The position numbers and the translations under genes were made by a program. A DNA stretch of 19,723 nt, from contig JANQIW010000050.1 in the NCBI GenBank assembly GCA_028281945.1, forward strand, positions 1 through 19,723, given 5' to 3'. Source of the stretch: Prochloraceae cyanobacterium PL24a_bin.78 (GTDB lineage: Bacteria; Cyanobacteriota; Cyanobacteriia; Cyanobacteriales; JANQIW01). Numbering within the stretch: position 1 is the first letter of the stretch; every line of letters begins with the position of its first letter. The notes beneath the pieces are model-generated. The model searched no databases. It had not been told where the DNA came from and was given only the letters and a program-made list of their open reading frames with translations. Below, one piece after another: positions 1,744-11,806 of the stretch.

Positions 1744-2154
1744 GTGGATTATTACTATTTTAGGTTACAAATAATTATGGATAATATATTAGCAGATATT
1801 GCTCATTATCTTTTCCAAGGTGGCATTATGAAAATTGGAGGAGAAATAGTGCAATCTCTTTGGAATAAATTTTGGGAAAAGATAAAAGATATTCCTAATG
1901 TTGATAAAGCTTTGTCAAAAGCAAAGGAAACTAAGTCAGAAGAAGTTTTCAAAGAAAAAATGTTGCCCTATATACAAATAGCAATGGAGGATGAGGATTT
2001 TGCTAATGAGATAAAAGAATTAGTTAAAAAAATTAAAAGTGAAGGTTATATTAATATAACAGGAGATCAAAATAATACTGGATTAATCAATAGTGAGAGT
2101 TTAAAAGATATAAATCAAAGTACTATTACTATAGATAAGTCAATAAAAAAGTAA
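1744..2154 (+). CDS. Small helical protein of unknown family, probably the N-terminal module of the downstream STAND NTPase (see slippery site 2145-2151)
   Basis: The ORF is open from GTG 1744. Alternative starts are ATG 1777 and ATG 1828, the latter preceded by the SD-like AAGGTGG at 1817-1823. It has a hydrophobic first segment, a K/E-rich helical middle and an N/S/T-rich tail. It ends ATA AAA AAG TAA. Confidence 0.6.
   Translation: MDYYYFRLQIIMDNILADIAHYLFQGGIMKIGGEIVQSLWNKFWEKIKDIPNVDKALSKAKETKSEEVFKEKMLPYIQIAMEDEDFANEIKELVKKIKSEGYINITGDQNNTGLINSESLKDINQSTITIDKSIKK
2145..2151 (+). promoter_or_regulatory. A_AAA_AAG heptamer in phase with ORF 1744-2154, immediately before its TAA. It is either a candidate -1 ribosomal frameshift site or the site of a 1-nt homopolymer indel.
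   Basis: The zero-frame codons are AT[A] AAA AAG TAA (2143-2154). The -1 frame (AAA AAA GTA ATT ...) is open from 2139 and is the same frame as the NB-ARC ORF (2292). That frame has no ATG, GTG or TTG between 2139 and the TTG at 2292. Confidence 0.45.
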
Positions 2155-2291
2155 TTAATATCAATAATTGGGAGATAAAAAATGAATTATTAAAAGATAA
2201 AAGACAATGGCAAAATCTTTCTATTAGCTTAAAAACTACACCAATACCAGTAGACAACTGGGTAGGTAGAGAGAAAGAATGTAGCCAAATA

Positions 2292-4874
2292 TTGGAATGG
2301 CTTCAAGATAAGAATGTAAAAGCTATCGGCATATTTGGGTTAGGAGGCATAGGGAAGTCTTCATTAGCCGTTAGGATATACAATTCAGAGATTTCTATTC
2401 CTAAAGAAAACAGATTTTGGGTAGAAGTTACTGTGAAACCAGACTTTGCCGCATTTGCTAAGGGAATTATTGCAGGATTAGGAGGGAAGCCAACATCTGC
2501 TGGGAAGATAGAAGAATTAGTGAATGAATTGGTAGCCTTTCTTAGCAAGCAGCAGTATTTTTTAGTAGTCGATAATTTGGAAACCCTTTTAGACGAAAAG
2601 CGGCGGTGGTTGGATGAAGGTTATGGAGATTTTTTTCGAGAATGGTTTCAACGTGGTAGCAATAGCATTATTTTGGTGACTTCTAGAGAAAAGCCAATCT
2701 TGTTTGATGGGAAGAAAGCAAACAATTTTTGCCTTGAATTAGGAGGTATTGGGGTAGAAAATGGAGTGGAGTTGTTAGAAAAGGAAGGTATTTATGGTGA
2801 AAAGAAAGATTTACAGGAATTTTGCGAAGAAGTGAATAGTCATCCTCTTTGTTTAAAGTTGGTAGCATCTTTTTTAAGGGAATATTGTGATTGTGATTTT
2901 AACGAGATAAAAGAGTTACAGCAGGAGGAATTAGTATACGAAGAGGCTTATGGTTTGCATCGAAATAGAGAAAATGCTTGTTTATCTTGGAGTTTAAATC
3001 AGCATTTAGAGAATTTGGATACAGTTAGCAAAAGGTTTTTAGAGTTTTTGTGCGTGTATAGATTACCTTTTGATAGTGAAGCTGCTGGAGTAATGTTTGG
3101 TAAAATTGGTGATAATCTTGATAAGATTAAGCTTAAAAAAGCATTAGGTGGATTAGTAAATCGATCGTTATTAATGAAATTAGATGGTGGTAGCTTTGAG
3201 TTTTTGTCTTTGGTAAGGAATTTTGTCATCAGTAAGTCGGAAGATTTAAGAAATGCCCATGAATTAGCGATCGATTATTATCGTAAGTATTACCCTTTTA
3301 CTTCTGATAAAGCCATTACTGATGTGGATGGATATTTGGAGTTGTTTTACCATCATTGTCAGTTAGAAGGGTATGATTCTGCTTTTGATGTGATTGAGTA
3401 TTGTTATAGTTTTTTGTCATTAAGAGGTTATTACACTAAGATAGTTGAATCTTATGAGATTTTGTTAAAGGTTTGGGAAGAAAAAGATTTTAAAGATTTT
3501 AATGCAATTAGTAGATATGTATTTACTGTTAACTCTTTGGGAAATGCTTACGAATTCTTTGGAGAATATTATAAAGCAATTAAATTTCACCAACATAATT
3601 TAGAGATAAATGCAATTATAGATAATAATCAATGGGAAGCATCCTCTTTGAATAATTTGGGAAATGCTTACAAATTTCTGGGGAAATATAACAATGCTAT
3701 TCAATCTTATCAGAAGTCTTTAGAAATAAGTAGAGAAATAGGTAATCGAAAAGGTGAAGCTTCATTTTTGAATAATTTGGGAAATGCTTACAAATCTCTG
3801 GGGAAATATAACAATGCTATTGATTATATTGAAGAATCTTTAGAGATAAATAGAGAAATAGGTAATCAAAAAGGTGAAGCTAAAGCATTGGGTAATTTAG
3901 GAAATATTTTCCAACGTTTAGGAAAACATAGTGAAGCAATTAATTATCAACAAGAATCTTTAAAGATAAATAGAGAAATAGGTAATCGTGAAGGAGAAGT
4001 ATCCTCTTTGAATAATTTGGGAAATGCTTACAAATCTCAGGGGAAATATGAAAATGCTATTGAATCTTATCAAAAGTCTTTAGAAATAAGTAGAGAAATA
4101 AAATATTTTCAAGGAGAAATTAATTCATTAAATAATTTAGGCGATATTTTTCAGTGTCTAGGAAAATATAATAAAGCAATTGATTATTACCAAGCATCTT
4201 TAGAGATAAATAGAAGAATAGAATATCGTCAGGGGGAAGCAAATTCTTTATATAATTTAGGAAATACTTACCATTGTTTAGGAGAATATCAAAACGCTAT
4301 TGAATCTTATCAAGAATCTTTAAAGATAAAAAGAAAACTAGAAAATAGTAAAGAGTTAACTGATGTATTAGGTAATTTGGGAGTTGTTTATACCTGCTTG
4401 AAAGAATATCAAAAAGCAATTGAATCATACCAAGAGTCTTTAGAAATAAGTAGAAGAATTTGCTATTGTCAAGGAGAAGTTAATTCCTTGATAGGTTTGG
4501 GAGTTAATTATAATTTCTTGGGAAAAGATAAAGAAGCAATTGAATCATACCAAGAGTCTTTAGAAATAAGTAGAAGAATTGGCTATCATCAAGGAGAATC
4601 TATATCATTATATAATTTGGGATATTTATACTACTGGTTGCAAGAATATCAAAAAGCAATGAAATATTATTTAGAGGCTTTTGATATAAGTATAGAGATA
4701 GGAGATTATTTCAAAGTAGGAATTTGTTGTTTTTATCTAGGAGATATTTTCATCAAGTTAAATCAGAATACAGAGGCAAAAAAATATTATTTACAAGCAA
4801 GAGATTTGTTTAAGGCGATGGGATTATATAAAGATGTAGAAAAATGCAATCAAAAGATTGAGGAATTAAATTAG
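2292..4874 (+). CDS. STAND NTPase: NB-ARC domain + 10-11 TPR repeats (NLR-like). The true 5' end is probably upstream of 2292.
   Basis: Walker A GLGGIGKS (aa 16-23, nt 2337-2360). Walker B FLVVDN (aa 90-95, nt 2559-2576). ILVTSR is the RNBS-B/sensor-I-like motif and HPLCLKLV is GLPLA-like. From about aa 410 there are 40-aa TPR units (LNNLGNAYKSLGKYNNAIESYQKSLEISREIGNRKGEA). The track start is a TTG with no SD, only 15 residues before the P-loop, and the frame stays open upstream to 2139 (..PVDNWVGREKECSQILEWL). Confidence 0.9.
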   Translation: MEWLQDKNVKAIGIFGLGGIGKSSLAVRIYNSEISIPKENRFWVEVTVKPDFAAFAKGIIAGLGGKPTSAGKIEELVNELVAFLSKQQYFLVVDNLETLLDEKRRWLDEGYGDFFREWFQRGSNSIILVTSREKPILFDGKKANNFCLELGGIGVENGVELLEKEGIYGEKKDLQEFCEEVNSHPLCLKLVASFLREYCDCDFNEIKELQQEELVYEEAYGLHRNRENACLSWSLNQHLENLDTVSKRFLEFLCVYRLPFDSEAAGVMFGKIGDNLDKIKLKKALGGLVNRSLLMKLDGGSFEFLSLVRNFVISKSEDLRNAHELAIDYYRKYYPFTSDKAITDVDGYLELFYHHCQLEGYDSAFDVIEYCYSFLSLRGYYTKIVESYEILLKVWEEKDFKDFNAISRYVFTVNSLGNAYEFFGEYYKAIKFHQHNLEINAIIDNNQWEASSLNNLGNAYKFLGKYNNAIQSYQKSLEISREIGNRKGEASFLNNLGNAYKSLGKYNNAIDYIEESLEINREIGNQKGEAKALGNLGNIFQRLGKHSEAINYQQESLKINREIGNREGEVSSLNNLGNAYKSQGKYENAIESYQKSLEISREIKYFQGEINSLNNLGDIFQCLGKYNKAIDYYQASLEINRRIEYRQGEANSLYNLGNTYHCLGEYQNAIESYQESLKIKRKLENSKELTDVLGNLGVVYTCLKEYQKAIESYQESLEISRRICYCQGEVNSLIGLGVNYNFLGKDKEAIESYQESLEISRRIGYHQGESISLYNLGYLYYWLQEYQKAMKYYLEAFDISIEIGDYFKVGICCFYLGDIFIKLNQNTEAKKYYLQARDLFKAMGLYKDVEKCNQKIEELN
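3536..4650 (+). repeat. Intragenic 120-bp periodic repeat (TPR-coding units) with long near-identical stretches between units
   Basis: ttgaataatttgggaaatgcttacaaat[t/c]tc[t/a]ggggaaatat recurs at about 3651, 3771 and 4011. tctttagaaataagtagagaaata and tctttagagataaatagagaaata recur every 120 or 240 bp. caattgaatcataccaagagtctttagaaataagtagaagaatt recurs at about 4417 and 4537. Confidence 0.9.
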
Positions 4875-5161
4875 ATAACAATGCAAATATCTGCCATGAA
4901 AAATTCTTCTATTCCTACCTCGTAAGAGAAATTCAATAAAAGAAGGATATCCTCCTTGCAAGGTAAATTCTTTAGGAAAATCTTGCATTAGCTTATTACT
5001 GCTTAAAGAAATATATTAAAAAGCCATGGAAAATTATCAAAAAGATTTTTTAGAGAAATATACGATAGAAGAGGTATTTCCTTGCCTTAAAGAATAACTA
5101 AATTACGAAGAAATCTCTTCATTGCTAACAACGCTAACAAGTCTTTGGAAATTTATCAATT

Positions 5162-5295
5162 ATACCAAATCCAATTTTCTTTCCTTTACTTATTAAAAAA
5201 ACTGTTTTATCTCCTACTTTTTCCCAATCTTTGCGAATAGAGAATTGAGAATTCCACCTCGCCAATAAAGCTTGTTTCATAACCAGATTTAGTAT
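5162..5295. repeat. Copy A of a roughly 135-bp dispersed or direct repeat with imperfect inverted termini (MITE-like or segmental duplication)
   Basis: The copy starts ataccaaatccaatt, runs through tttcccaatctttgcgaatagagaat and gaattccacctcgccaataaagcttgtttcataacc, and ends agatttagtat. The ends are roughly reverse-complementary (ATACCAAATCC / GATTTAGTAT). It aligns by eye along its whole length with 5488-5660, and the similarity extends about 20 nt into both flanks. Confidence 0.7.
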
Positions 5296-5487
5296 TAGGA
5301 ATTAAATATCAGCAAAAAAATTACAAAAGAATCAACAAAACAAACCTAAATAGAGAATTCCCTTCCAAGAAAACATTTACAAGTATAGACAGAGAAATAG
5401 AGAGATATAGAAATAGAGAATCTCAAGAAGAAGTTGCTTCATAGCCAAATTTGGATTTCCTTATAACTTTTTGGAAAAATATTATTG

Positions 5488-5660
5488 ATACCAAATCCGA
5501 TTTTTTTTCCTTGACTTACTTAAAAATTATTTTATCTCTTACTATTTCCCAATCTTTGCGAATAGAGAATGGATAATGGATAATGGAAATGGATAATGGA
5601 TAATGGATAATGTAGAATTCCACCTCATCAATAAAGCTGTTTCATAACCGGATTTAGTAT
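5488..5660. repeat. Copy B of the same repeat, carrying an internal (GGATAAT)n microsatellite
   Basis: The copy starts ataccaaatccgatt, runs through tttcccaatctttgcgaatagagaat[GGATAAT array]gtagaattccacctcatcaataaagctgtttcataacc, and ends ggatttagtat. A partial third left end (gataccaaatctttttgc) lies at about 5703. Confidence 0.7.
5571..5611. repeat. Heptanucleotide microsatellite (GGATAAT)5 with one GGAAAT variant
   Basis: It reads ggataat ggataat ggaaat ggataat ggataat ggataat. It sits exactly where copy A has only 'tga' between agagaat and gaattcc. Confidence 0.95.
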
Positions 5661-5988
5661 GAGGTATTAAAAACTATCAAAAGTTTGTAGTAACAAATAG
5701 ATAGATACCAAATCTTTTTGCTTTATCAATTTAACTGCAAAATAAATCACAATTTTAATCAAGGAAATACCTTTCTCAAACTAAATTCCAAATTGTTGGC
5801 ATTGGTATTTTATTTACAAGCTAGGAAATTTAGGAAACAACAAGAATTGATAATAAGGTAGAGGAATAAAATTAAAGAGATTCAAAAATGAGATAAAGAA
5901 GCAAAGATTTTCTATCAAAGATTATTCCTTCCTTTTAGAGATATACAAGAAAACAAAATATCTCCCTCATCCCTAGATAAATTTTTTA

Positions 5989-6061: not shown

Positions 6062-7282
6062 GTGTCGATTGAATATTATCAAAAGTATTTGCAAATGGAT
6101 AAACAGATAGAGAATCCCCAGGAAAAAAATTCCCAGCAAAAAGCAATCTTATTAACTAAATTGGGAAATAGTTACCTCTTGAAAGGAGAATATCAAAAGG
6201 CAATGGAATATCATCTCAACTCATTAGACATCAAAAGGGAATTAGGAAATTTAAAAGGAGAAGCTATTTCATTAGCAAATTTAGGTATTGTCTATAAATA
6301 TTTGGGAGATTATCAAACAGCCATCAAATATTACCTAGAAGTATTAACCATAAGTAGAAAAATACCCTTTCACCAAGGAGAAATAATTTCATTAGGGAAT
6401 TTGGGAAATGCTTACTTATCCCTCAAAAATTACCAAAAGGCAATCGAATATTACCAACAGCTTTTAATCATTACTATAAAAAGAGGAAATCTACAAGCAG
6501 AAGCAATCGCATTATGTAATTTAGGTGTTGCTTTCCACTGCTTAGGGGAATATCAAAAAGCAATTCAATATTATCAAGAGGATTTAAATATTTGTCGAAA
6601 AATAGAAAATTCTCGAGGAGTTGCAATGGCATCAAGAAATTTAGGAGTTACTTACCACTCCTTGGGAGAATACCAAAAGGCAATTCAATATTACCAAGAG
6701 GATTTAGATATTTGTAGACAAATGGAAAATCACCAAAGAGAAGCAACGGCATTAGGAAATTTAGGTGTAGTTTACAATTCTGTTGGAGATTATCACAAAG
6801 CAATAGAATATCATCTCCAATCTCTAGAAATCAAAAAGAAGATTGGTTGTCGCCAAGGTGAAGCTTCATCATTAGGAGGTTTGGGAAATGCTTATTATTC
6901 CTTGGGAAAATTTCAAAAAGCAATAGAATATCACCTCCAATCTCTAGAAATCAAAAAGGAGATTAGTTGCCGTCTTGGAGTAGCTGCTTCATTAGGAGGC
7001 TTGGGAAATGTCTATTATTCCTTGGGAAAATTTCACAAAGCAATCCAGTTTTACCAACAGGTTTTTGAAATAAGCATAGAAATCCAATATCCTTTAGGGA
7101 TTGCAACTTCTTGTTTCAATTTAGGAAATTCTTTTGAAAAACTCAATTGCCAATCTCAAGCCAAAAAGTTTTTTTTACAGGCAAGGAAATTTTATCGCAA
7201 GATAAATTTGGATAAGAAGGTAGAGAATTGTGATAGTAAAATTGGCAAATTTAGAGAAGGAAAACATTTAAACACAAAATAA
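6062..7282 (+). CDS. TPR-repeat protein (9 units), paralogous to the sensor half of the NB-ARC-TPR gene and likely N-terminally truncated
   Basis: 406-aa ORF with a GTG start and no SD. It begins inside a TPR unit (SIEYYQKYL matches the AIEYYQ consensus), and TPR-like coding remnants continue upstream across stops (FLLEIYKKTKYLPHP*INFLGNVALAN). The units resemble LGNLGVVYNSVGDYHKAIEYHLQSLEIKKKIGCRQGEASS. The C-terminal cap is homologous to the end of ORF 2292-4874. Confidence 0.8.
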   Translation: MSIEYYQKYLQMDKQIENPQEKNSQQKAILLTKLGNSYLLKGEYQKAMEYHLNSLDIKRELGNLKGEAISLANLGIVYKYLGDYQTAIKYYLEVLTISRKIPFHQGEIISLGNLGNAYLSLKNYQKAIEYYQQLLIITIKRGNLQAEAIALCNLGVAFHCLGEYQKAIQYYQEDLNICRKIENSRGVAMASRNLGVTYHSLGEYQKAIQYYQEDLDICRQMENHQREATALGNLGVVYNSVGDYHKAIEYHLQSLEIKKKIGCRQGEASSLGGLGNAYYSLGKFQKAIEYHLQSLEIKKEISCRLGVAASLGGLGNVYYSLGKFHKAIQFYQQVFEISIEIQYPLGIATSCFNLGNSFEKLNCQSQAKKFFLQARKFYRKINLDKKVENCDSKIGKFREGKHLNTK

Positions 7283-7372: not shown

Positions 7373-8977
7373 ATGAAACATATCACCTCAATACTAGGTA
7401 TTGCCATAACAGGAATCCCAATAATTGTATATGCAATGCCAGATGTTAGCAAAATTGCCCAAGAAATTACAGTCAGAATTGACGGAGTTAGTAGTGGCAG
7501 CGGTGTAATAATTCAAAAAAAAGGAGAAACTTACTATATACTCACCAATACCCACGTAATAGATAAAGTTGGAGAATACCAAGTAACTACTTCCGATGGT
7601 AAAACTCACCAAATAGATGAACAAAAGATTATAAAATTACCAAATTTAGATATTGCTATACTAACTTTCACTAGTGATTTACCCTATCCCACAGTAAAAA
7701 TAGCAAATCCAGATGCCATAAACCGAGGAGAAAAAATTCATGTAAGCGGTTGGGCACGCTCGGGAGGTAGTTTAAGACAAAGAATTTATATTAAAACAGA
7801 AGGAATCCTCACAGATACCGATTCCCAACTCCCACTAGGTAACTCATTAAGCTATACAAATTTAGTAAGAGCAGGTATGAGTGGTGGTCCAATTCTCAAT
7901 AATAAAGGACAACTAATCGGAATTAATGCTTTAGTAAGGCTAGAGCAAAATTCAGATAATATAGTATCTTCTGGAATTAGTATCAATAAAATTATGACAT
8001 GGCTAGAAGAATACGCCATAATAGAAATAAATTCAAATAGCCAAAATGCAAATAACCCACAAACAAGGCCTACTATTAACACATCAAATAACAATTATAC
8101 CTTAACCAATACCCTACAAGCCCAAGGAAGAAGCGTCAATACTCTTGCCTTAAAAGATTCCATCTTAGCAAGTGGCCAAAGTAATGGTAGTATTTCCCTC
8201 TGGAATATCACCAGTCAATCTCCCATAAAAACCTGGAAAGCCCATTCACAAGGCATTAACGCCTTAGCCATTAGCCCAAATGGAGAATATCTTGTTAGTG
8301 GCAGTGATGATAATCTCATTAAAATTTGGGATTTATCCACAGGAAAATTATTCAAAACCTTAAAAGGCCACCAAGATTCAGTCACAAGTCTTGCTTTTAC
8401 TCCAGACGGAGAAACCATTGCCAGCGGGAGTTGGGATAAAACCATTAAGCTTTGGAATATCCAAACAGGGGAGATAATACATTCATTAGAAAAACATTCA
8501 GGGTTAATTAATACCATTTTTATTAGTAATGATGGTAAATTTTTAGCTAGTGGTTCAGCCGATACAAATATTTATTTATGGGATATTCAATCAGGAGAAG
8601 TGATTAATACCTTAAAAGGACATAGTTTATCCGTCTTATCTATGGTAATGACCACTGATAATCAGACATTAGTTAGTAGCGATGGCAACGGTCTCATTCA
8701 TATTTGGAATCTTCAGACAGGTAAAGTTACTAACATTTTAGAAGGCCATTTAGATGGAGTATGGTCTTTAATTGTAACCTCCGATGGTAAAACCTTAATT
8801 AGTAGTAGTTGGGATAAAACTATTAAGTTTTGGGATATTTCTAATGCTAAATTAAGGTATACTTTAAAAGAACATTCAGATTATGTTGTGACTCTTGCTT
8901 TGAGTCAAGATGATACAACCTTGGTTAGTGGGGATTGGAATTCTCAAATTAAGATTTGGCAAATCTTGTCAAATTAA
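7373..8977 (+). CDS. Trypsin-fold (S1/Trypsin_2-like) serine protease fused to a 7-bladed WD40 propeller, with an N-terminal hydrophobic signal or anchor
   Basis: The catalytic triad is intact: His61 (ILTNTHVI, cac 7553-7555), Asp93 (NLDIAILTF, gat 7649-7651) and Ser170 (GMSGGPIL, agt 7880-7882). The N-terminus reads MKHITSILGIAITGIPIIVYA. An N/Q/T-rich linker is followed by 7 WD40 units from about aa 245 (for example GHQDSVTSLAFTPDGETIASGSWDKTIKLWNIQTGE). Confidence 0.9.
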   Translation: MKHITSILGIAITGIPIIVYAMPDVSKIAQEITVRIDGVSSGSGVIIQKKGETYYILTNTHVIDKVGEYQVTTSDGKTHQIDEQKIIKLPNLDIAILTFTSDLPYPTVKIANPDAINRGEKIHVSGWARSGGSLRQRIYIKTEGILTDTDSQLPLGNSLSYTNLVRAGMSGGPILNNKGQLIGINALVRLEQNSDNIVSSGISINKIMTWLEEYAIIEINSNSQNANNPQTRPTINTSNNNYTLTNTLQAQGRSVNTLALKDSILASGQSNGSISLWNITSQSPIKTWKAHSQGINALAISPNGEYLVSGSDDNLIKIWDLSTGKLFKTLKGHQDSVTSLAFTPDGETIASGSWDKTIKLWNIQTGEIIHSLEKHSGLINTIFISNDGKFLASGSADTNIYLWDIQSGEVINTLKGHSLSVLSMVMTTDNQTLVSSDGNGLIHIWNLQTGKVTNILEGHLDGVWSLIVTSDGKTLISSSWDKTIKFWDISNAKLRYTLKEHSDYVVTLALSQDDTTLVSGDWNSQIKIWQILSN

Positions 8978-9042: not shown

Positions 9043-10017
9043 ATGATTGAAGTCGAGCATCTTAGTAAAATATATGGTAGTACAATAGCAATTCATGATG
9101 TAGCCTTTAATGTTTCTGAAGGGGAAATATTAGGGTTTTTAGGCCCAAATGGAGCCGGCAAAACTACTACCATGCGAATTTTAGCAGGTTATATCCCTGC
9201 TACTACCGGGACGGCCAAAATAGCAGGTTTTGATGTCCACGATCGATCGATGGAAGTGCGATCGAGAATTGGGTATTTACCAGAAACCCCGCCATTGTAT
9301 TTAGATATGACAGTGGAAGCATATTTAAACTTTGTCGCCAAAATCAAAGGAGTAAATGCAGGGGATCGTCAGAATCGAGTAAAAACAGCAATAAAAAATA
9401 CTCAGCTAGAAGAAAAACAAAAAGTAATTATCCGGAAATTATCTAAAGGCTATCGACAAAGGGTAGGTATAGCCCAAGCTATAGTTCACGATCCTCCTGT
9501 AATTATCCTCGATGAACCGACAGTAGGGCTTGATCCCAAACAAATTATAGAAGTTCGCAACTTAATCAAAAATCTGGCAGGGAAACATACTATAATTCTC
9601 TCAACTCATATTCTTCCAGAAGTAAGTATGACTTGTAATCGAGTTGCCATTATTAATAAAGGAAAAATAGTAGCAACAGATGCCCCAGAAAATTTGATGC
9701 AACAACTTTCAGGGAGTTCAGGTTATCTAATAGAGGTAGAGGGAGATTGTTCTGTTATCAAACCCGAACTTGAGGGAATTTTAGGTGTTTCTAAGGTAGA
9801 AATACAACCATTAGAATTGAATAAACGTTCTTTAGTCCAAATAAATTTATCAGCAAATAAAGAACTTGGGAAAGAAATTGCTGCTATGATTGTAAATGCA
9901 GGACTAGGATTATATGAAATGCGACGTAATCGTCCAACTTTAGAAGACGTATTTTTAGAATTAACTACTACTGAAAAAGTTTTTAATGAACCCGAACAAG
10001 GAAAATCAGAACAATAA
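9043..10017 (+). CDS. ABC transporter ATP-binding protein (ABC-2 / GldA-like subfamily)
   Basis: Walker A GPNGAGKTT, signature LSKGYRQR, Walker B VIILDEPTVGLD and H-loop STHIL. The downstream operon contains an ABC-2 permease, a GldG-like protein and a DUF4340 protein. Confidence 0.92.
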   Translation: MIEVEHLSKIYGSTIAIHDVAFNVSEGEILGFLGPNGAGKTTTMRILAGYIPATTGTAKIAGFDVHDRSMEVRSRIGYLPETPPLYLDMTVEAYLNFVAKIKGVNAGDRQNRVKTAIKNTQLEEKQKVIIRKLSKGYRQRVGIAQAIVHDPPVIILDEPTVGLDPKQIIEVRNLIKNLAGKHTIILSTHILPEVSMTCNRVAIINKGKIVATDAPENLMQQLSGSSGYLIEVEGDCSVIKPELEGILGVSKVEIQPLELNKRSLVQINLSANKELGKEIAAMIVNAGLGLYEMRRNRPTLEDVFLELTTTEKVFNEPEQGKSEQ

Positions 10018-11806
10018 AAGTAAAAATAAAAAGATTAATCTCTGTCTTAATCCAGACTGTCTACACCAAAATCTAGTGAAAGCTCAAATTTGTGAACATT
10101 GTAATTGTAAATTATTATTAAAAGAGCGTTATCGTCCCATTAAATTAATAGGACAAGGTGGTTTTGGAAAGACTTTTTTGGCAGTAGATGAAGGGAAACC
10201 CTCTAAACCATACTGTGTAATTAAACAGTTTTTTCCAAAAGGACAAAAGCCTAGTGCCCTTAAAAAAGCCGCTGAATTATTTGAAAAAGAAGCAATGCGT
10301 TTGGAGCAATTAGGTAAACATCCTCAAATTCCTGAATTAATAGCATATTTTAATGAAAATAATAAACAATATTTAGTTCAAGAATATATAGATGGAGATA
10401 ACTTAGCTGAAGAATTAAAAAATAAAGGGAGGTTTAATGAAAATAAAATCAAAGTATTTTTACTGGATTTACTAAATATATTAAAATTTATTCATAAAAA
10501 CAAAATTATTCATCGAGATATCAAACCAGAAAATATAATTCGTCGAAAGCAAGATGGGAAGGTGGTTTTAGTAGATTTTGGAGCTGCTAAAGTGGCGACT
10601 GAAAAAGAATTCGGACAAGAAGGAGATCTTGCCATAGGTTCGGCAGAATATATACCTCCAGAACAAAAGGCAGGAAATGCCATATATGCCAGTGATCTCT
10701 ATAGTTTAGGAGTGACTTGTATAAATTTATTAACTAAGAAAAGCCCTTTCGATTTATATGATGATCATGAAAATAAATGGATTTGGAAAAGATATTTAGA
10801 AGAAGAACAAATAAGTTTTCGGTTAGGAAAAATTATAGATAAATTAGTATCTACAATTCCCAAGAAACGCTATAAATCTAGTCAAGAAGTTTTAGAAGAA
10901 TTAGATCCAAGTAGAGAACCTTCTCCAGAAGATCAGATTCAATTCCAGAAAATAACTTTTGAAATAGCTATACTCGAACAACAAAAAGCAGGATTATTTG
11001 GGTTAGGAACAAAATTAATATGTAATTACTCTACCGGAAAAGCCAAATCTTATCTAGAACATTTAAAAAATGGTCACATCATTGAAATGATAAAAATACC
11101 AGGAGGTAATTTCCAAATGGGATCTCCTGACACAGAAGACCAACAATGTCAACGAGAAAGTCCTCAGCATTGGGTTACAATCGCTCCCTTTTGTATGAGC
11201 AAGTATCCAATAACTCAAGAACAATGGCTAGAAGTTGCTAAACTACCTAAAATTAAGCTAAATTTAAATCCTAAACCATCTTATTTTGAAGGTGAAAATC
11301 TTCCGGTAGAGCAAATATCTTGGTTTGAAGCCATGGAATTCTGCTATCGTTTATCTAAAAAATCAGGGATGACTTATACTCTTCCCACAGAGGCTCAATG
11401 GGAATATGCTTGTCGCGCAGGTACTAACACTGAATTTCACTTTGGTTCTAATATCACCACTGATTTAGCCAATTATAATGGCACCAGTTATAAAGGTGCT
11501 CCCAAAGGCAAGGATCGTCAACAAACAACTCCAGTAGATAGCTTTTATGCTAATCCTTTTGGTTTATACGATTTGCATGGCAATGTTTGGGAATGGTGTG
11601 CTGACTATTGGCATGATAATTATAAAGATGCACCCACCGATGGTAGTGCTTGGTTATCTGGGGCTAATCCTAAAACTCCTCGTGTAGTACGTGGAGGATC
11701 TTGGTATTTTTTCCCTAGAGATTGTCGTAGTAGCAATCGAGAATTTATGAGTTCTGAAGTTCAGGATTTTAATTTTGGCTTTAGAATTGTCAGATTAATG
11801 GAGTGA
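9986..11806 (+). CDS. Zn-ribbon + Ser/Thr protein kinase + FGE-sulfatase-like (SUMF1/EgtB/PvdO family) domain fusion
   Basis: Zn-ribbon CLNPDC..(12)..CEHCNC. Kinase motifs are GQGGFGKTF, CVIKQF, HRDIKPEN (cat cga gat at 10511-10519), DFGAAK and SAEYIPPEQ. The C-terminal domain has IPGGNFQMGSP, EAQWEYACRAG, HGNVWEWC, RGGSW and GFRIV. The ATG at 9986 overlaps the ABC ATPase gene by 32 nt in another frame. Confidence 0.9.
   Translation: MNPNKENQNNKSKNKKINLCLNPDCLHQNLVKAQICEHCNCKLLLKERYRPIKLIGQGGFGKTFLAVDEGKPSKPYCVIKQFFPKGQKPSALKKAAELFEKEAMRLEQLGKHPQIPELIAYFNENNKQYLVQEYIDGDNLAEELKNKGRFNENKIKVFLLDLLNILKFIHKNKIIHRDIKPENIIRRKQDGKVVLVDFGAAKVATEKEFGQEGDLAIGSAEYIPPEQKAGNAIYASDLYSLGVTCINLLTKKSPFDLYDDHENKWIWKRYLEEEQISFRLGKIIDKLVSTIPKKRYKSSQEVLEELDPSREPSPEDQIQFQKITFEIAILEQQKAGLFGLGTKLICNYSTGKAKSYLEHLKNGHIIEMIKIPGGNFQMGSPDTEDQQCQRESPQHWVTIAPFCMSKYPITQEQWLEVAKLPKIKLNLNPKPSYFEGENLPVEQISWFEAMEFCYRLSKKSGMTYTLPTEAQWEYACRAGTNTEFHFGSNITTDLANYNGTSYKGAPKGKDRQQTTPVDSFYANPFGLYDLHGNVWEWCADYWHDNYKDAPTDGSAWLSGANPKTPRVVRGGSWYFFPRDCRSSNREFMSSEVQDFNFGFRIVRLME

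Follow-up and report, generated by a model that had tools for sequence, protein, structure and literature searches.

A probable programmed -1 ribosomal frameshift joins a Bell-type effector to an NB-ARC/TPR receptor in a cyanobacterial locus

How is an NB-ARC/TPR reading frame translated when no credible start codon precedes its P-loop and the frame already stands open within the 3' end of a short upstream gene? The question arises on the forward strand of contig JANQIW010000050.1 of Prochloraceae cyanobacterium PL24a_bin.78 (19,723 nucleotides, referred to here as the window). Comparison of the locus (Table 1) with its relatives makes it likely that this is a Bell/NLR cell-death module, of an immune or allorecognition type, in which programmed -1 ribosomal frameshifting links the two parts.

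The small ORF ends TCA ATA AAA AAG TAA. The first-pass annotation had recognised here an A_AAA_AAG heptamer in exact phase with an adjoining TAA, and a -1 frame open from 2139 into the NB-ARC region; the sequence bears out both points, and the -1 frame runs uninterrupted from 2139 to the stop at 4872–74, giving 911 codons that encode the NB-ARC domain and the TPR repeats. The same annotation delimited the small ORF as 1744–2154. Its end at ATA AAA AAG TAA stands, but its likely start is ATG 1777 rather than the GTG at 1744 from which the ORF is listed; the resulting 125-aa protein is present in identical form in public databases (P0001). Joined to the -1 continuation, the Bell ORF gives a predicted fusion of 1,032 aa, which replaces an earlier estimate of about 1,040 aa. 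We identified the same A6 run in an independent Logan assembly of run SRR20820736, which may derive from the same reads. Position 2145–2151 combines an in-phase heptamer, an open -1 ORF with a conserved extension, and conservation of site, phase and frame in homologues.

Table 1. Features of the Bell/NLR locus, in window coordinates.
Feature	Position	Strand	Remarks
Small ORF, predicted Bell domain	1777..2154	+	125 aa plus TAA; zero-frame product; from ORF list and translation
Predicted five-helix bundle, residues 3-89 of small ORF	1783..2043	+	AlphaFold2
N/Q/T/I-rich tail, residues 93-125, ..DINQSTITIDKSIKK	2053..2151	+	disordered, pLDDT <50; ends at slip site
Last -1-frame stop TAA	2136..2138	+	upstream limit of productive-shift window 2139-2151
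Slippery heptamer A_AAA_AAG	2145..2151	+	zero-frame X_XXY_YYZ phase; A 2145, AAA 2146-48, AAG 2149-51
Predicted trans-frame junction peptide			..DKSIKKVININNW..
-1-frame continuation	2151..4874	+	907 codons and a stop codon; covers linker, NB-ARC NTPase and TPR repeats
Zero-frame stop TAA	2152..2154	+	abuts heptamer on its 3' side
Conserved linker motif NLSISLKTTPIPVDNWVGR	2214..2270	+	no start codon upstream in -1 frame
NB-ARC domain, Pfam PF00931	2271..2882	+	46.1 bits against a cut-off of 23.5; residues 45-248 of translation from 2139
TTG, first canonical start in NLR frame	2292..2294	+	inside NB-ARC domain; not a conserved start in homologues
P-loop GLGGIGKS	2337-2360	+	within NB-ARC
TPR repeat sensor region	3531..4808	+	TPR_12, E = 2e-84; at least nine TPR units

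The NLR frame has the Walker A P-loop, NB-ARC domain and C-terminal repeats of an NB-ARC STAND NTPase, and its homologues at 40–45% identity are annotated as NB-ARC/TPR proteins. No ATG, GTG or TTG occurs in this frame between 2139 and 2291. TTG 2292 is indeed the sole canonical start ahead of the P-loop, as had been proposed, and initiation there would clip the N-terminal part of the domain, since the Pfam match begins upstream of it at 2271. The linker that precedes this match aligns with TSTNLITTPPN..WVGR/WVER of homologues.

The small ORF starts MDNILADIAHYLF.., with a hydrophobic N-terminal helix and Asp at position 2. AlphaFold2, supplied with a 52-sequence alignment, predicts helices at residues 3–17, 23–36, 42–52, 55–69 and 73–89 with pLDDT of ~82–92, and this five-helix model agrees with the published description of the Bell domain. 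A phmmer search with the small ORF matched only stand-alone proteins of 89–187 aa, some with BASS10-type tails; among 1.8 billion proteins the matches included P0081 (E = 3e-6) and P0082 (E = 4e-6), both with tails of this type. Our family HMM detects Bell ORFs at loci with motifs identical to BASS10 entries in Table S2 of Dyrka et al (2020; bioRxiv 10.1101/2020.01.06.895854). Pfam held no family matching the small ORF, and Foldseek and PDB sequence searches with it were uninformative. Because the two-gene relatives correspond to published Bell/BASS10-NLR amyloid-signalling pairs, the small ORF is, judged by homology and predicted fold, a Bell-domain executioner: it has an alpha-helical domain of ~100 aa, an acidic residue within positions 2–3 and homology to recognised Bell proteins. 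Its tail shares columns of alignment A2 with the YDQSTVKQVGKI.. tails of BASS10-type Bell proteins and is a putative amyloid-signalling (BASS10-like) segment; we infer both the motif assignment and the amyloid role.

The case for frameshifting is carried by the related loci. We fetched 86 cyanobacterial loci, 85 of them with an NB-ARC match, and in 71 of the 85 the NLR is immediately preceded by a small-ORF homologue. The two reading frames overlap in the -1 relation in 34 loci (31 non-redundant) and in the +1 relation in none; a single in-frame stop separates them in 12, and 25 have separate genes. An in-phase slippery heptamer lies within the permissible window in 30 of the 31 non-redundant -1 loci, which span many genera, and the 223 permissible codons of the -1 loci hold 31 in-phase XXXYYYZ heptamers where 2.2 are expected, and 29 of the form XXXAAAG where 0.14 are expected, although the loci are phylogenetically related and these counts are therefore not independent events. 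The heptamer varies in identity (A_AAA_AAG, G_GGA_AAG, C_CCA_AAG or G_GGA_AAC) and is slippery throughout. The zero-frame stop abuts it in 20 of the 31 loci (7 nt from X1 to the stop) and follows one codon later in 8 more. The closest NB-ARC homologue that we found, P0002 from locus L087, has the same site (GAA AAA AAG TAA), and the nearest relatives available for the window locus show identities of at most 58% for Bell and at most 45% for the NLR. In E. coli, C_CCA_AAG, G_GGA_AAG and A_AAA_AAG are the most efficient -1 motifs and A_AAG is the best tetramer (Sharma et al, 2014; PMC4066793).

The amino acids encoded in the -1 frame are conserved from directly past the heptamer onward, ahead of every start codon. 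Possible starts in the homologues, where there are any, lie anywhere between -36 and +1 aa of the P-loop, and database NLR proteins start with MGGxGKS, within the P-loop itself. Five non-redundant FS/RT loci (L009, L011, L018, L023 and L024) have no canonical start before the P-loop; the same holds for L034, upstream of which no Bell ORF was found. The NLR ORFs in the frameshift loci are intact and mostly 600–976 aa long. The first-pass annotation had set programmed -1 frameshifting beside an indel or sequencing error and had proposed a comparison of orthologous loci for a single ORF or the same split. The recurrence of the split, the -1 phase and the in-phase heptamer in 30 of 31 loci, with no +1 case, favours the programmed option on computational grounds.

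Stimulatory elements are common at -1 sites and not obligatory. In the window, no SD-like motif is present within 30 nt upstream of the heptamer, and the 80 nt downstream show no stronger folding than shuffled sequences (z = +0.69), which agrees with the earlier remark that neither a convincing downstream stem-loop nor an upstream SD-like stimulator is visible; the sole candidate enhancer is the adjoining stop codon. Some relatives carry an upstream GGAGG at 15–21 nt or AGGAGG at 8 nt, or a modest hairpin (z about -2.2 to -2.3). Unstimulated V_VVA_AAG gives only ~0.3% frameshifting in E. coli, or at most ~3.7% with a favourable 3' context (Sharma et al, 2014).

The locus might instead consist of two independent genes, with the NLR initiated at TTG 2292, or through termination-reinitiation coupling at a non-canonical codon such as ATT (2154) or ATC, and the heptamer incidental to a conserved ..K-stop ending. 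We regard this as improbable. A related subclade (Nostocales BASS10) does have two separate genes with ATG starts of their own, so that a Bell protein and an NLR can work unfused and TTG 2292 could in principle give a slightly truncated NLR; L004, L067 and L072 share with the window an ATT after the stop; and overlap was reported for 42% of Bell/NLR pairs and taken as ordinary gene overlap (Dyrka et al, 2020). Yet no ATT or ATC is conserved beside the stop across the loci, and the -1-frame peptide upstream of the inconsistent or missing starts is conserved. The protein ending varies (GK, PK or KK, sometimes plus an extra residue) while the nucleotides stay slippery, including the wobble base of the preceding codon, and the overlaps are exclusively -1. 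The Bell proteins of the two-gene subclade end ..VSF*, without Lys. The arrangement that the first-pass annotation had named as telling against frameshifting, independent genes with a proper start and no heptamer, was found in this distinct subclade, where the genes do not overlap, and not in the other loci.

Two further explanations turn on the A6 run itself. The split could be a 1-nt indel, due to phase variation, to a recent mutation that made a pseudogene, or to an error of sequencing or assembly, in a gene that is truly or ancestrally one continuous ORF; alternatively, RNA polymerase could add one A, so that a minority of A7 mRNAs would carry Bell and NLR as one continuous frame. A7 would indeed bring the frames together, homopolymers are prone to error and mutation, and the assembly is a draft at 32% GC; one inserted A at the RNA level would give the same product, A7 runs are present in L007 and L087, and dnaX of Thermus and certain IS elements are known examples of transcriptional realignment at A runs. 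Efficient slippage, however, normally needs runs of about 8–9 or more. Neither explanation fits the family: sequencing error, phase variation and transcriptional slippage cannot account for G- and C-type heptamers that lack a long homopolymer. The 30 other loci are split at the same place, most of them with GGGAAAG or CCCAAAG, which are not indel-prone, and slippage by the polymerase is implausible where, as in most members, A3 is flanked by G3 or C3. That the X_XXY_YYZ phase is kept in these A3 members also argues against transcriptional slippage, since phase matters only to the ribosome. As to the indel, the second assembly also has A6, both flanking ORFs are intact, and +1 cases are absent; no continuous Bell-NLR ORF occurred among the 120 listed of 401 Bell homologues (116–166 aa), nor among 14 matches in the representative library, with the long match P0084 (3,245 aa, five short matched stretches) left aside. 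We consider transcriptional slippage very unlikely and the indel, which the first-pass annotation had kept in play, the least probable reading of all.

Under programmed frameshifting, most ribosomes would terminate at TAA 2152 and release the 125-aa Bell protein, an abundant free product comprising a five-helix executioner domain and a disordered, amyloid-prone tail. In a minority, the tRNA-Lys pair on AAA-AAG in the P and A sites would slip back one base on A_AAA_AAG, take GTA (2151) as the next codon and continue for 907 codons. The product would be a rare 1,032-aa Bell-tail-NB-ARC-TPR protein of canonical effector-NOD-repeat architecture. One mRNA would in this way set a fixed, low sensor-to-effector ratio, and free Bell and fusion would share an identical C-terminal tail motif. 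Triggering of the TPR sensor may then oligomerise the NB-ARC domain and cluster the fused Bell-tail modules, which would either be activated directly or seed an amyloid fold to which the pool of free Bell is recruited; membrane damage and death of the cell would follow. We infer the slipping, its efficiency and these signalling steps.

The loci with an in-frame stop form a sister class. The stop is always TGA (9 of 9 loci), in 8 cases with C as the next base, compared with TGA in 1 of 58 other Bell genes. A single TGA between in-frame ORFs suggests readthrough, and the existence of this class points to selection for a minor fusion product. Retroviruses express gag-pol either through a -1 frameshift or through readthrough of a stop codon, depending on the virus. 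By analogy only, Bell/NLR lineages would reach a minor fusion by a -1 shift (31 loci) or by a leaky TGA (9 loci), and the use of both routes in related lineages would imply that selection acts on the ratio and not on the mechanism. Unlike gag-pol, the Bell/NLR loci are bacterial and chromosomal, and they encode an executioner and a sensor instead of structural and enzymatic polyproteins.

Bell/NLR pairs with bacterial amyloid signalling sequences, including BASS10, have been described (Dyrka et al, 2020), and Bab/Agp in E. coli is a functional Bell/NLR example (bioRxiv 10.1101/2024.11.07.622273). In our set, the motif strings of the two-gene relatives are identical to those of the BASS10 pairs in Table S2 of the former study. 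The window locus resembles these pairs in its homologous helical protein of ~125 aa, whose N-terminal helix is hydrophobic, whose position 2 is acidic and whose C-terminal tail is disordered, and which is collinear with and immediately upstream of a same-strand cyanobacterial NB-ARC/TPR NLR. It differs in that its NLR has no N-terminus, start codon or second motif copy of its own and shows a -1 overlap at a slippery heptamer instead. Because the motif is present on the Bell tail only, with the second copy at the NLR N-terminus absent, we classify the locus, from its sequence, as a variant and not a canonical BASS pair. Frameshifting has no occurrence in the text of the survey, and six tail strings from frameshift loci appear in none of its tables; its pair-finding requires a motif on the annotated NLR N-terminus and would miss frameshift loci (Dyrka et al, 2020).

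The slip site is matched by known cases of bacterial V_VVA_AAG -1 frameshifting, in E. coli dnaX (A_AAA_AAG) and in orfA-orfB of IS3, IS911 and IS150: the in-phase heptamer is identical, the upstream ORF is overlapped by a -1 ORF, a zero-frame stop follows soon after the site, and a short product with a minor trans-frame fusion at a set ratio is predicted. In contrast to these systems, no SD-like or stem-loop/pseudoknot stimulator can be recognised in the window, and its gene is a predicted cellular immune or cell-death module, neither a replication gene nor a mobile element. The shift truncates the product in dnaX, whereas here it would add 907 aa. To our knowledge, conserved -1 frameshifting in non-mobile bacterial chromosomal genes is rare, with dnaX and a handful of others known, and we know of no report that an NLR-type immune sensor depends on recoding. 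We found no publication describing frameshift-linked Bell/NLR loci.

A broader reading, to which we incline with more reserve, is that, across cyanobacteria, an entire clade of Bell/NLR systems dropped the duplicated amyloid motif and makes its receptor by recoding the effector gene, through a -1 shift on V_VVA_AAG or through UGA readthrough according to lineage. One DNA copy of effector and tail would then yield both an abundant free executioner and a rare fused receptor, with motif identity guaranteed and stoichiometry hard-wired. Such a system would be the first NLR to depend on recoding and would establish a new cellular bacterial -1 family. If recoding at these loci is confirmed, it would bring to light a recoding family that is widespread, being already represented by ~30 genomes, and would explain, and allow correction of, many cyanobacterial NB-ARC/TPR annotations with impossible starts inside the P-loop. 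It would also add a way of coupling an immune sensor to a pore-forming effector, by one mRNA, a fixed ratio and a shared amyloid-type tail, beside the two-gene amyloid relay and all-in-one fusions. With its frameshift, readthrough and two-gene forms, this one family would offer a natural experiment on sensor-to-effector stoichiometry in regulated cell death.

The predicted effector-NOD-repeat order is that of the all-in-one NLRs, namely fungal HeLo/HeLL-NACHT/NB-ARC proteins, plant CC-NLRs and bacterial Avs/bNACHT, whose effectors are N-terminal. Unlike in these, the Bell effector would be joined only in the recoded minority and would also be made free in excess. Related NB-ARC-TPR proteins that lack Bell carry caspase, trypsin, CHAT or LuxR domains in frame at their N-terminus, in the effector slot.

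The window is AT-rich (32% GC), and its small ORF most plausibly starts at ATG 1777; the resulting 125-aa product exists as such in public collections (P0001). Its 3' end reads TCA ATA AAA AAG TAA, which places an A_AAA_AAG heptamer in exact X_XXY_YYZ phase directly against the stop codon. The -1 frame opens just upstream of the heptamer and encodes an NB-ARC domain followed by about nine TPR units (the NLR frame). The sole ATG, GTG or TTG in this frame upstream of the P-loop is a TTG lying within the NB-ARC match, and a start there would truncate the domain. The first-pass annotation had described the heptamer, its phase, the -1 NB-ARC frame and the lone TTG, as well as the lack of an SD-like upstream stimulator or a convincing downstream stem-loop at the slip site, and all its factual statements on the window were confirmed. 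The fusion by a -1 shift, which it offered as one option, is supported, with the predicted size corrected from about 1040 aa to 1032 aa (125 + 907); the predicted junction is ..DKSIKK|VININNWEIK.., with the trans-frame junction peptide ..DKSIKKVININNW... We folded the sequence 3' of the slip site in the window and 10 relatives in search of a stimulatory fold: the window was no better than its shuffles, and among the relatives z fell no lower than about -2.3, without a shared fold. A scan for a terminator between the small ORF and the NLR frame was negative, promoter-like matches there were at shuffle level only, and no Rfam family exceeded the threshold across the whole window.

Positions of the features identified in the window (nt)
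Feature	Position	Strand	Remarks
Small (Bell) ORF as given in the ORF list	1744–2154		GTG start
Small (Bell) ORF from its most plausible start	1777–2154		125 aa
Last stop in the -1 frame	2136–38
Open NLR frame	2139–4871		stop at 4872–74
Heptamer A_AAA_AAG	2145–2151		abuts the stop codon
NB-ARC match (PF00931)	from 2271		46.1 bits, cut-off 23.5
TTG in the NLR frame	2292
P-loop (GLGGIGKS)	2337–60
Region with no ORF of at least 60 aa	4875–6061		1.2 kb
Tandem duplication of ~325 nt	5134–5317 and 5460–5682		79–89% identical
(GGATAAT)n microsatellite	5561–5612
Similarity to the NLR ahead of the TPR-only ORF	from around 5996		upstream of the ORF's own start
Stand-alone TPR-only ORF	6062–7282	+	406 aa, GTG start, 46% identity with the NLR's TPR part
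Trypsin-like peptidase fused to WD40 repeats	7373–8977	+
Ser/Thr kinase fused to FGE-sulfatase domain	9986–11806	+

The nearest NB-ARC/TPR proteins are all cyanobacterial and share 40–45% identity with the window's NLR, and a metagenome scan for a close orthologue of the locus gave one distant fragment only. The contig carrying P0003, checked for the same purpose, begins too near its gene to reveal the upstream region. The first three genomic contexts that we looked at each contained a small ORF without a Pfam match directly upstream of the NLR. An NB-ARC alignment scan over one genome per species yielded 80 cyanobacterial loci, and the survey set comprised 86 loci, 85 with an NB-ARC match. 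Each locus was scored for the NLR frame, its opening point, the start codons in that frame and an upstream homologue of the small ORF, detected by an HMM trained on members of the family. The small ORF lies immediately upstream of the NLR in 71 loci, which fall into three arrangements. In the frameshift class (34 loci, 31 non-redundant) the NLR frame overlaps the small ORF by 10–76 nt in the -1 frame; in the in-frame class (12 loci) both share one frame with a single stop between them; and in the two-gene class (25 loci) the genes lie tens to hundreds of nt apart and the NLR begins at an ATG of its own ~99 codons before the P-loop. None of the 71 showed a +1 overlap.

The small ORF of the window gave no significant match in Pfam or NCBIfam, and a word-indexed homologue search with this single sequence found only itself. 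Exhaustive phmmer recovered stand-alone proteins of 89–187 aa, among them P0081 and P0082 as direct links (E about 1e-6), and one 3245-aa protein matched over five short stretches only; a profile search extended the family to 401 homologues, all of 116–166 aa and unannotated among the 120 listed. At two-gene loci, the small proteins end in tails such as ..NIQVSANAYDQSTVKQVGKIDANQVSF* and the NLRs begin MAEEPS..NNIEMNLTAYGNSKVTQVGQINAAEV.., and these strings are the Bell-side and NLR-side BASS10 amyloid signalling motifs in Table S2 of Dyrka et al (2020; bioRxiv 10.1101/2020.01.06.895854). Bell is described there as an alpha-helical domain of ~100 aa, analogous to HeLo, that is encoded beside NLRs and activated via paired amyloid motifs. 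The window's protein, with the N-terminus MDNILADIAHYLF.., was modeled by AlphaFold2 as five confident helices (residues 3–89) and a disordered tail (93–125). Because neither a sequence profile search nor Foldseek with this model returned a significant match in the PDB, its identification as a Bell domain rests on the sequence links and the published description. Related NB-ARC/TPR proteins lacking an upstream Bell ORF carry in-frame N-terminal caspase, trypsin, CHAT or LuxR domains, so that Bell, once joined by recoding, would fill the normal effector slot. The window's Bell protein has its closest relative in P0079 (187 aa, 58% identity). In the C-terminal tail of P0079 a ~27-aa unit (FGKIGDNATIQTGGNK.E.N.PKQLNT) occurs three times in tandem, resembling the effector-side amyloid motif repeats of fungal systems.

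The split seen in the window is shared by its relatives, and 30 of the 31 non-redundant frameshift loci contain an in-phase XXXYYYZ heptamer in the narrow interval that runs from the final -1-frame stop to the zero-frame (Bell) stop. A_AAA_AAG occurs in the window, L007, L024 and L011–13, as well as in L087, from which the closest NB-ARC homologue found (P0002) comes; G_GGA_AAG in L005, L006, L008, L009, L017 and L018; C_CCA_AAG in L014 and 16 Nostocales loci; and G_GGA_AAC in L016. The exception, L004, has G_GTA_AAG and keeps the A_AAG tetramer. Across the 223 permissible codons of this class, 31 heptamers were observed against 2.2 expected from the rate in flanking coding sequence, and 29 of the XXXAAAG type against 0.14. 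While nearby synonymous positions vary, three features are fixed: the third (wobble) base of the preceding codon, the use of GGA or CCA, and the use of AAG in place of AAA; by this comparison, what the family conserves at the slip site is its function rather than a particular sequence. The family's heptamers are exactly the top set for E. coli, for which Sharma et al (2014; PMC4066793) rank C_CCA_AAG, G_GGA_AAG and A_AAA_AAG highest in efficiency among -1 heptamers and A_AAG first among tetramers. The zero-frame stop directly follows the heptamer in 20 loci and lies one codon further in eight more. From the heptamer onward the -1-frame peptide is conserved (..GKELSPEEI.., ..PKVTNIAVFG.., ..TSTNLITTPPNLxxWVxR), upstream of every possible NLR start, and five non-redundant frameshift or readthrough loci lack any canonical start before the P-loop.

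These patterns bear on three other explanations. Translation of the NLR as an independent gene, from TTG 2292 or a non-canonical start, is conceivable for the window by itself but unlikely overall: it leaves unexplained why slipperiness is conserved at the nucleotide level, why the overlaps are -1 without exception and why some loci have no start at all. Reinitiation at ATT or ATC was considered and rejected, as no conserved candidate codon was found. Transcriptional slippage, conceivable as a source of the fusion on A6 or A7 runs, is not conceivable for GGGAAAG or CCCAAAG and would not be expected to select for ribosomal phase; we regard it as very improbable. The suggestion in the first-pass annotation of an indel in the A run, whether a sequencing error, a pseudogenising mutation or phase variation, is hardly credible given that the split recurs across relatives, most members have non-homopolymeric heptamers and the flanking ORFs are intact. 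The A6 run is identical in a second (Logan) assembly of run SRR20820736, which may share its reads with the first. Because frameshift-class NLR ORFs are long and uninterrupted, they are not decaying pseudogenes. Since most members carry GGGAAAG or CCCAAAG with ribosomal phase kept, none of pseudogenisation, sequencing error, phase variation or transcriptional slippage was accepted as the general cause.

The in-frame class shows a different stop codon usage. TGA separates the two ORFs in all nine non-redundant loci (L002/L003, L015, L021, L022, L023, L064, L070, L084, L085) and is followed by C in eight, mostly as TGA CTN. These loci span at least three NB-ARC clusters and the genera Aerosakkonema, Argonema, Phormidium, Potamolinea, Nodularia and Coleofasciculus. 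Bell stops are TAA (29) or TAG (2) in the frameshift class and TAA (26) or TGA (1) in the two-gene class, so that TGA occurs in 1 of 58 Bell genes outside the in-frame class. UGA-C is the weakest termination context known in bacteria, and here too the conserved linker sits after the stop and ahead of the first start codon. This pattern suggests candidate programmed UGA readthrough in place of the frameshift. That two different devices for recoding occur at one boundary between domains speaks for selection favouring a minor fusion product, a logic resembling that of retroviral gag-pol.

What the sequences show is the anatomy of the locus, its homology and the conserved phase and slipperiness. 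From these we infer, as the probable mechanism, programmed frameshifting at the slip site: standard decoding would yield free Bell, while a minority of ribosomes would shift -1 on A_AAA_AAG to produce Bell-tail-NB-ARC-TPR. Whereas the two-gene form has a motif on each partner, in the recoded form a single encoded copy of the tail motif would be carried by both products. Activation and oligomerisation of the fusion could cluster its tails and Bell domains, which may then trigger the free Bell pool by amyloid templating or direct co-assembly. Since the window lacks an SD-like or structural stimulator, shifting is expected to be inefficient, at some tenths of a percent up to a few percent if judged by E. 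coli; such a low rate would suit a rare sensor and an abundant effector.

The annotated N-termini of related NB-ARC/TPR proteins are erratic. Many read MGGxGKS, with the start called inside the Walker A motif, and others MGRK.., where the called start is a GTG in the conserved WVGR motif; misplaced starts occur in database proteins P0005, P0009, P0011, P0014, P0016, P0018, P0022, P0024, P0025 and others. This is evidently a systematic annotation artefact, arising because the NLR frame has no genuine start for gene callers to find.

Bell/NLR pairs and V_VVA_AAG frameshifting were each already known. We found no report in the literature linking the two, and a full-text search for frameshift or readthrough with Bell, NLR, NB-ARC or STAND returned nothing relevant. 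Dyrka et al (2020) treat Bell/NLR overlaps as ordinary and never mention frameshifting, and none of six tail strings from these loci is present in their motif tables. The main text of the GeneTack survey makes no mention of NB-ARC, TPR or Nostoc.

Within a Nostocales cluster (L026–L083), NB-ARC domains more than 75% identical accompany either the two-gene BASS10 or the C_CCA_AAG frameshift form, and the two are interleaved in UPGMA clustering, which suggests repeated switching between arrangements or coexisting paralogues. In the two-gene BASS10-type locus of Nostoc sp. P2090 (L028), the NLR (around 3070) is interrupted in frame by a stop right ahead of its P-loop (..LIGI*GIGGTGKS), which probably marks a pseudogene or a sequencing error. 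In the frameshift-class locus L011 (239–669), the Bell ORF itself is split over two frames (239–466 and 430–669), a further disruption. A Nostocales-type Bell/NLR locus with C_CCA_AAG TAA in an 'uncultured Acetobacteraceae' MAG (L055, contig CAZZZY010000779.1) probably represents a mis-binned cyanobacterial contig.

Downstream of the NLR in the window, the TPR-only ORF may, from its similarity, represent either a leftover NLR sensor domain or a distinct paralogue of one. The peptidase-WD40 and kinase-FGE-sulfatase architectures, found here beside the Bell/NLR module, are characteristic of conflict and signalling neighbourhoods in cyanobacteria.
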